A DNA stretch of 28,423 bases from positions 1 to 28,423 of IMG/VR virus record IMGVR_UViG_2537562173_000011. One strand, given 5' to 3'. The position numbers were made by a program, and so were the translations under genes. The notes below the pieces were generated by a model. It saw nothing but the letters and a program-made list of their open reading frames with translations. It searched no databases and was not told the DNA's origin. Positions 14,101 through 15,501 of this stretch are shown here, in pieces. Source of the DNA: a virus (taxonomy: Duplodnaviria > Heunggongvirae > Uroviricota > Caudoviricetes). Within the stretch, counting starts at the first letter, position 1. Every line of letters begins with the position of its first letter.

Positions 14101-15501
14101 TACTCGATCCTTATCTGGCAGCCAGACAGAGTGACAGGTGACTTCGTGATAACGCGCAATTTGAAGCCGACATTTTTCCTGATGCGCCCTACTCGCTTCC
14201 ACAGAACACGCTTGTCGTAAACGAACGGTTCATTCTGCTCAATCATCTGCTCACGTCCGTAATTGATTCCGTCAGTGGTTGCAGAGAGGAACAGGCGGTC
14301 AGCGTACTGCGCAACGCCAGTTGAAGATTCAACTTCAAGGTCGAAAACTCTGGCGTTATCCGCTTTGAAGAGGGGAGTAAACAGCAGGTGTTCCTGTTGC
14401 TTGTCGTACTGGCTGCTGATATCGAACTGCAATTTGCCGGTCACCGATTCCAGCTTATCGCCGCAAGTTATCTGATTGCCTTCGTAAATGAAGTCGATAG
14501 CGCGGTACACATCGTCATACAGGCCTGTTTTCAACACACACCATTGCGGACCATTGGCGCTTGAAGATGCGTCGTACACGAGGACGTGACGCGTAAGATG
14601 GATAATCAGCAGTTCATGCGCATCAAATCGCAGCGATTCCATCACACCATCAGCCAGTTCATCAGCAGTGTAGGAGCGTAGTATTTTCTCAATGCTCGCG
14701 CTGGCGATTGGTGATACCTGACCAGAGCCGATGATATACACAGACGGCGCACCTGTTGCCGGATTGCTGATGAACGCATACGAATCAGCAAACGGCGTTT
14801 TGCAGTAAGTCCCGGCGATACCTTTTTGCACCATCAGTGATGGCTGTGCGACATACAAAGCAGCACCAACTGTGGTTGCGCCAGTCAGGGAGAAATATTC
14901 AATAGTCGATGTACCAAAGCAGACGATGAAGTCTCGCCATGTTCCGATTCCGATGATGCCGTCAGGCTGTGATTCTGCGCGATATTGTGCGCTGTATCGG
15001 TCAGGATGCGATTCGTCTTCAAGGTCAGTGATAAACCATGAATCAGTACCGTCTTTTGACCACGCATAACGCCCACGTAAGCGCGTAATGTCGCGAACTG
15101 AACCTAACTCATACTGCGTGAATCCACTGTCTGTAGGCCAGTTTGAGACGGTTTTAACCGTGCCATCATAACGATACTCGACCAGTTGACCATTAACGCC
15201 TACAGCCTGTGATGTTCGACCATGCGCCATTGATACGCGACCACTTCCGGCGACGTCACCGACTTCGCTTTCTCCTTTAATGGGTAGACTCCATTACTGA
15301 GGCGTGGGCGATGGACAAAGATGCGACGAACAGCCATGCGTTGCTGGTAGATTTCTTCCCCGGGAATGAGCGAAGATATCCGCTGCTGTTCAGGATTTCT
15401 TTGGGCGTAGCCAACATATTCACTGGCAGATAGTCGATATAGTCGGCGTTTCGAAAGTCTTTGCCGACACCTTTCATAAGCGGAAGTTGCTGAATCGGCA
15501 T
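14100..15501 (-). pseudogene. P22 gp10 homolog, split into two ORFs (15277..15501 and 14100..15230)
   Basis: The N-terminal 48 aa (MPIQQLPLMKG...SGYLRSFPG) and everything from MAHGRTSQAVGVNGQ onward match gp10 as I recall it, but the ~120 bp between them reads in other frames with a stop at 15277. Confidence 0.6.

Follow-up and report, generated by a model that had tools for sequence, protein, structure and literature searches.

In Escherichia coli strain i1 (clone A), an ST95 isolate from urine, the gp10 gene of a P22-like prophage is interrupted by an 80-bp patch of foreign sequence. This patch is very probably an artefact of draft-genome construction, in which contig ends that bore low-quality tips of chimeric reads were joined directly, with no gap characters between them. 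Aligned with its sources, the patch is a composite of zwf, a host gene, over 53 nt that decay toward their 3' end, followed by 27 nt of the phage scaffolding gene. The actual gp10 of the strain i1 prophage is probably intact and identical to the head-completion gene of coliphage CUS-3 and E. coli UTI89; if so, the 74- and 376-residue gp10 "proteins" that can be called from the record would be annotation ghosts.

Anatomy of the split gp10 gene

The DNA that we analyzed, a stretch of 28,423 nucleotides referred to here as the window, contains a Lederbergvirus prophage whose late genes lie on the minus strand. Its nearest named relative is CUS-3, a K1-specific phage that carries an endosialidase tailspike and neuO. 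The synteny of gp10 with gp4, gp26, coat, and scaffold is conserved, and no single intact open reading frame (ORF) of about 472 codons was found between gp4 and gp26 in the window, the gene being split at 15279-15358. Alignment to CUS-3 gave a perfect match up to 15278 and again from 15359, and the flanking DNA is 100% identical, for about 180 bp to the left and over 300 bp to the right. An earlier note, made from the sequence alone, had judged that a P22-type gp10 was disrupted by a foreign segment of about 120 bp; the disruption is borne out by the match to CUS-3 on both sides and by the recognition of PF11134 (Phage_stabilise) in both called products (74 and 376 amino acids), whereas the comparison with relatives that it proposed defined the lesion more narrowly, as 80 bp (15279-15358) in place of 97 bp of native gp10 (CUS-3 15476-15572). 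In CUS-3 the 97 nt encode IAKRSDVNGISRGVEYNMAQSAVYRVCGGKLY; in the window they are replaced by 80 unrelated nucleotides that bring about a frameshift and a stop, the frame being shifted because 17 nt are lost on balance.

The N-terminal part of the gene (15359-15501, minus strand; codons 1 to 48, MPIQ...SFPG in translation) is native and 100% identical to its counterparts in CUS-3 and UTI89. The ORF to which it belongs, 15501-15277, specifies 74 amino acids, comprising these 48 native residues and 26 junk residues, and ends at a TAA codon (15279-15277) created by the left junction, in line with the earlier statement that the segment ends in a stop. The C-terminal part (14100-15278, minus strand) is also native but lies out of frame with the N-terminal part; its first ATG, at 15230, opens a frame of 376 amino acids. 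A coding segment for KGESEVGDVAGSGRVSMAHGRT had been described as present but out of frame. It is indeed out of frame with the N-terminal part, but it is simply native gp10, encoded by 15230-15278 in the C-terminal frame on the far side of the patch. CUS-3 gp10 (ABQ88395.1), like P22 gp10, is a head-completion or "packaged DNA stabilization" protein of the PF11134 family, to which the window gp10 also belongs; the first 48 residues of the window and CUS-3 proteins are identical, and three residues differ from KGESEV onward.

The right-hand piece of the patch (15332-15358, plus strand) is an exact 27-bp copy of scaffolding-gene sequence in direct orientation that adjoins gp10 at 15359 with 0 nt of microhomology. 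The 27-mer, AGCCATGCGTTGCTGGTAGATTTCTTC, has exactly two plus-strand sites in the window, 15332-15358 and 17938-17964, and self-comparison identified this pair as the only long two-copy direct repeat present. The exact copy and its coding of EEIYQQRMA within the scaffolding gene had been noticed previously, with the second site placed at 17941-17967, three positions too high; it occupies codons 129 to 137 of the scaffolding gene (17455-18348, minus strand). That the match could not be due to chance was likewise upheld, since none of 100 shuffles gave it. In CUS-3, UTI89, phiv205-1, and ExPEC XM the 27-mer has a single site, at the equivalent position of the scaffold gene, and the scaffold-gene copy is therefore the native one. 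No similarity between gp10 and the scaffold gene was found beside the 27-mer on either side.

The left-hand 53 bp (15279-15331, plus strand) were traced by genome search to the 3' end of the host gene zwf, encoding glucose-6-phosphate dehydrogenase, in the sense orientation. This origin is not visible from the window alone and did not figure in the earlier note; a zwf match to these 53 bp was obtained in 5,426 of 5,426 complete E. coli genomes. Compared with UTI89 zwf, the piece reads as 40 nt exact, T>A, 6 nt exact, C>A, 4 nt exact, and a 1-nt deletion (a missing A), so that three differences fall inside the last 13 nt, before the 27-mer begins. Relative to the donors, the 27-mer is exact, and the zwf piece, as compared with the ST95 allele, agrees over 40 nt and differs at 3 of the following 13 positions. 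A zwf allele reading GATGCGACGAA was found in no organism represented in the viral, genome, and metagenome contig collections, the genome and metagenome contigs having been scanned for exact occurrences of a 24-mer over the odd zwf tail. The T>A change at 15319 (position 41 of the zwf piece) does coincide with that of an uncommon natural zwf allele (GACAAAGAT, an Asn-to-Lys change), which occurs in the four top-ranked genomes, matching at 51 of 52 bases, for example FHI_NMBU_11; we take this match to be a coincidence because other errors adjoin it.

Distribution of the patch and provenance of the record

The patch was present in none of the 5,426 complete E. coli genomes and in none of the phage records inspected, and in exact-pattern scans the patch junction was absent from viral contigs (38-mer) and from genome and metagenome contigs (24-mer over the zwf tail). 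A query across the patch was spanned by one record among the 5,426 genomes, and this proved to contain a divergent gp10 allele rather than the patch. Of the E. coli genomes and phages that bear gp10, the closest 60 were inspected and aligned to the two flanks only, so that the possibility held out by the earlier note, that the 27-mer might be native to the gp10 of relatives, was not realized. In the ST95 sister strains APEC O1, S88, IHE3034, UTI89, and UM146, the flanks are 100% identical and surround the native 97 bp. The best matches, ExPEC XM and PU-1 (97.7%), break precisely at the gp10 patch and at a deletion in the portal gene, described below, that is shared by none of the 5,426 complete genomes.

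The window corresponds to positions 27142 to 55564 of GenBank contig AEYT01000031.1 (55,760 bp; NCBI GCA_000233675.2), which belongs to strain i1, and an exact-product look-up in the assembly collection returned this contig as the sole carrier of the 74-residue gp10 fragment. The strain i1 genome is a draft dating from 2011, for which paired-end sequencing on the Illumina GA IIx gave 56 scaffolds made up of 79 contigs, with the order set against APEC O1 (PMC3203180). The library is given only as "paired-end," mate-pair libraries of 1.5 to 4.5 kb being described only for clone D isolates, and the assembler is not named (PMC3203180); the literature on gap closers (PMC4515008) is not specific on this point. 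The window and two stretches of AEYT01000031.1 that were examined contain no Ns. The host DNA beside the prophage on the contig (9.77 kb) is 99.97% identical to that of UTI89, with three single-nucleotide polymorphisms (SNPs) and no gaps, and the chromosomal alleles of strain i1 are essentially those of UTI89 and NU14. The anomalies on the contig are confined to the prophage, the host part being undamaged relative to UTI89.

Some features of the record concern the prophage as a whole. Position 1 falls exactly on the integrase ATG, and the other end of the window, 196 bp short of the contig end, is a gene start. The prophage is truncated in the nin region, at the equivalent of CUS-3 28460 of 40207, and its replication, immunity, and early-left regions lie on other contigs. 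The neuO gene (ORF 1398-2153, minus strand) contains a heptanucleotide tract at 2044-2148 with 15 copies, compared with 19 in CUS-3; the copy number in the draft is untrustworthy because this 105-bp tandem repeat is at least as long as a GA IIx read. The tract is the phase-variable element of the O-acetyltransferase gene, and the 15 copies keep the 251-residue ORF open.

Other lesions and mosaicism in the prophage

The portal gene, on the minus strand, has lost 331 bp (CUS-3 19265-19595) at a blunt junction between 19050 and 19051 that shows no microhomology; the frame is shifted, and the gene is broken into ORFs 19047-20306 and 18439-19188. The missing 331 bp are present in all four references (CUS-3, UTI89, phiv205-1, and ExPEC XM), and a private A>C change located 22 nt to the left of the junction is found in none of them. 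The portal product is not among the genes on record for AEYT01000031.1. We consider that this deletion is probably a dropped scaffold gap.

The third lesion lies between the phage holin gene and Q, where a chromosomal argE fragment of about 886 bp (25137-26022, plus strand) is preceded by a fold-back, an inverted copy of the holin-gene start (25083-25153, plus strand). The 59-nt arms of the fold-back occupy 25024-25082 and 25095-25153, and it turns at a natural 5-nt inverted repeat, evident as an alignment overlap at 25078-25082; its far end is degenerate and decays into GGGGGGGG, TGT, and A19. The join between the fold-back and argE (25138-25167, plus strand) thus holds a G8 run, TGT, and an A19 run, the window's only homopolymers of at least 8 nt in 28 kb. 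Within the argE fragment, the first 34 nt or so contain about 14 substitutions, mostly to A, which make up the A19 run, and the other 852 nt are those of ST95 argE. An RNA or cDNA origin of the A19 tract was entertained and dropped, the strands of the pieces giving no consistent picture. Native phage sequence downstream of Q restarts at 26021/26022, and the fold-back and argE together (25024-26022) stand in for the usual Q-holin region of about 640 bp.

A hunt for further foreign patches, based on the union of alignments to UTI89, CUS-3, phiv205-1, and ExPEC XM, revealed none beyond these three lesions; the uncovered blocks were ordinary mosaic segments, collinear in other prophages where checked, and a 123-nt block in the Gp49-family gene reflects allelic variation that keeps the reading frame. 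The blocks unlike CUS-3 (5686-12224, 22485-22922, and 27141-27896) comprise the immI region (ant, arc, and mnt), the genes for the ejection proteins gp16 and gp20, the Gp49-family gene, and the nin segment. Those that could be matched are collinear in ExPEC XM and phiv205-1, and none of the complete E. coli genomes by itself covers 80% of 5600-12300. As far as alignment can tell, the blocks that depart from CUS-3 are ordinary P22-like mosaicism and not additional lesions.

Origin of the patch

Early short-read drafts can contain chimeric contig tips, dropped scaffold gaps, and chimeric reads formed at ligation or circularization junctions. We propose that AEYT01000031.1 is a scaffold whose contigs were butted together without gap characters, and that several of the contig ends retained short, unclipped tips from single chimeric reads. 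At gp10, the final read of the left contig would have crossed from gp10 into zwf for 53 nt, its 3' tail being of poor quality, and the opening read of the right contig would have passed from 27 nt of the scaffold gene into gp10; the tips, 80 nt in total, would cover most of a true gap of 97 nt, with the other 17 nt or so lost at the join. The passage of 17938-17964 directly into 15359 could represent the ligated ends, or circularization junction, of a 2,606-bp fragment (15359-17964), a size that falls in the 1.5- to 4.5-kb mate-pair range of the laboratory's other isolates. The circularization reading is a conjecture because the strain i1 library is described only as "paired-end" (PMC3203180). 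The 331-bp portal "deletion" would be a dropped gap of a like kind, and the fold-back, poly(A), and argE structure would be a further false join, made through A-rich junk.

Several properties of the record support misassembly, which is favored because a 2011 GA IIx draft carries, in one prophage, a piece of host zwf with one-ended errors, an argE chimera, and a blunt portal deletion. The patch comes from a short-read draft left unfinished and was encountered in no independent sequence searched; its foreign pieces, of 27 and 53 nt, are below read size and about the size of unclipped graph tips; there is decay and low-complexity junk at the joins; and other misjoins are found in the same record. 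The mismatch clusters in the zwf end, the argE end, and the fold-back are not natural divergence, since the strain's alleles are essentially those of UTI89 and NU14, and together with the poly(A) and poly(G) runs they resemble the poor-quality terminal bases of early Illumina reads. At the three junctions that could be assessed, gp10|zwf, scaffold|gp10, and the portal deletion, microhomology is 0 nt, the pattern given by blunt ligation or plain concatenation; the zwf|scaffold junction was left out of the count on account of its degenerate tail. The resemblance to draft-assembly artefacts thus extends to sub-read foreign pieces, blunt junctions, one-ended errors, poly(A) and poly(G) junk, a contig-end fold-back, loss of sequence without Ns, restriction to a single draft record, and a private SNP by a junction. 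The case differs from such artefacts in that the breaks lie in genes that are single copy in relatives: both gp10 and portal are single copy in related ST95 genomes, with no obvious repeat to account for contig breaks. It can also be held against an artefact that a deletion with multisource filler returning to the same locus is typical of real break repair, and that error-prone templated synthesis could in principle generate mismatches near a junction.

The earlier note had left the choice between template switching, gene conversion, and misassembly, and of these misassembly is the one that we favor. Gene conversion, or ectopic homologous recombination, would have moved the 27-mer from the scaffolding gene into gp10, and an exact, directly oriented 27-bp copy within the same operon, at a distance of 2.6 kb, might seem to invite that view. 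Homologous flanks are, however, absent on both sides of the 27-mer, two-thirds of the patch is zwf and not scaffold, and the lengths exchanged are unequal (80 versus 97 bp); because the patch is composite, the proposal is effectively refuted, and we regard it as almost certainly wrong. No more room is left for the idea that the segment is a natural gp10 variant, whether an allele that has diverged or a small insert of a mobile or self-splicing kind. Mosaicism is usual among P22-like phages, and many blocks of this prophage are unlike CUS-3, but the divergent gp10 allele of strain 573 (83.5% identical) aligns with CUS-3 in this region and not with the patch, which moreover shifts the frame and terminates the ORF; both of its pieces have been traced to unrelated genes, it is missing from the 60 closest genomes and phages with gp10 that were inspected, and a match across it was obtained in no complete E. 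coli genome. A natural variant is accordingly barely conceivable.

More serious consideration is due to a real scar formed in vivo, although we think it unlikely. A double-strand break in gp10 would have been followed by resection of 97 bp and by end joining or serial template switching of the alternative end-joining (A-EJ) or MMBIR/FoSTeS type, with filler DNA captured or copied from zwf (53 nt) and the scaffold gene (27 nt); on this view the decaying prophage would bear more scars in the portal deletion and in the insertion of the fold-back and argE. The architecture, a deletion with short filler from two loci of the same genome and a return to the same gene, fits break repair, the turning point of the fold-back is a natural 5-nt inverted repeat, as in quasi-palindrome template switches, all three lesions are within the prophage while the 9.8-kb host flank is clean, and prophage decay is common. 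The deletion with short inserts from the same genome, the multiple donors, and the fold-back inversion close by are likenesses to alternative end joining in E. coli (Chayot et al. 2010, as presented in bioRxiv 10.1101/605246) and to MMBIR/FoSTeS. End joining in E. coli is reported to require 1 to 9 nt of microhomology, with 1 to 3 nt in all of more than 30 events (bioRxiv 10.1101/605246). By that account, the microhomology that defines these pathways is missing here from all three assessable junctions, whereas in vivo template switching, as proposed in the earlier note, or end joining would normally leave it. Homopolymer junk and decayed piece ends are also foreign to these pathways, and the A19 and G8 tracts, with about 14 substitutions in 34 nt and then 852 perfect bases, have no known repair origin. 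The scar was seen in no other genome, those of the closest ST95 relatives included, and its source is an unfinished 2011 draft.

Were all three lesions real, an ST95 uropathogen would have disabled its K1-specific, CUS-3-like prophage through several microhomology-free break-and-rejoin events that captured chromosomal and phage fragments, a proposition that we find very unlikely. It would amount to an unusual case of microhomology-free filler-DNA repair in E. coli and to a small-scale, chromoanasynthesis-like repair signature; to our knowledge, no such signature has been described for E. coli prophages. With construction of the draft as the preferred explanation, the value of the case is mainly cautionary. 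At face value the record depicts a clinical ST95 strain with a defective K1 phage that has a broken gp10, a broken portal, and argE in its lysis region, and spotting chimeric-tip joins of this kind averts false calls of prophage decay, host-gene capture, and "template switching" when drafts are mined. The record also feeds probable ghost proteins to databases, in the form of the two gp10 fragments of 74 and 376 amino acids and a spurious ArgE-like ORF of 321 amino acids (25069-26034, Peptidase_M20) that arises from the argE piece.
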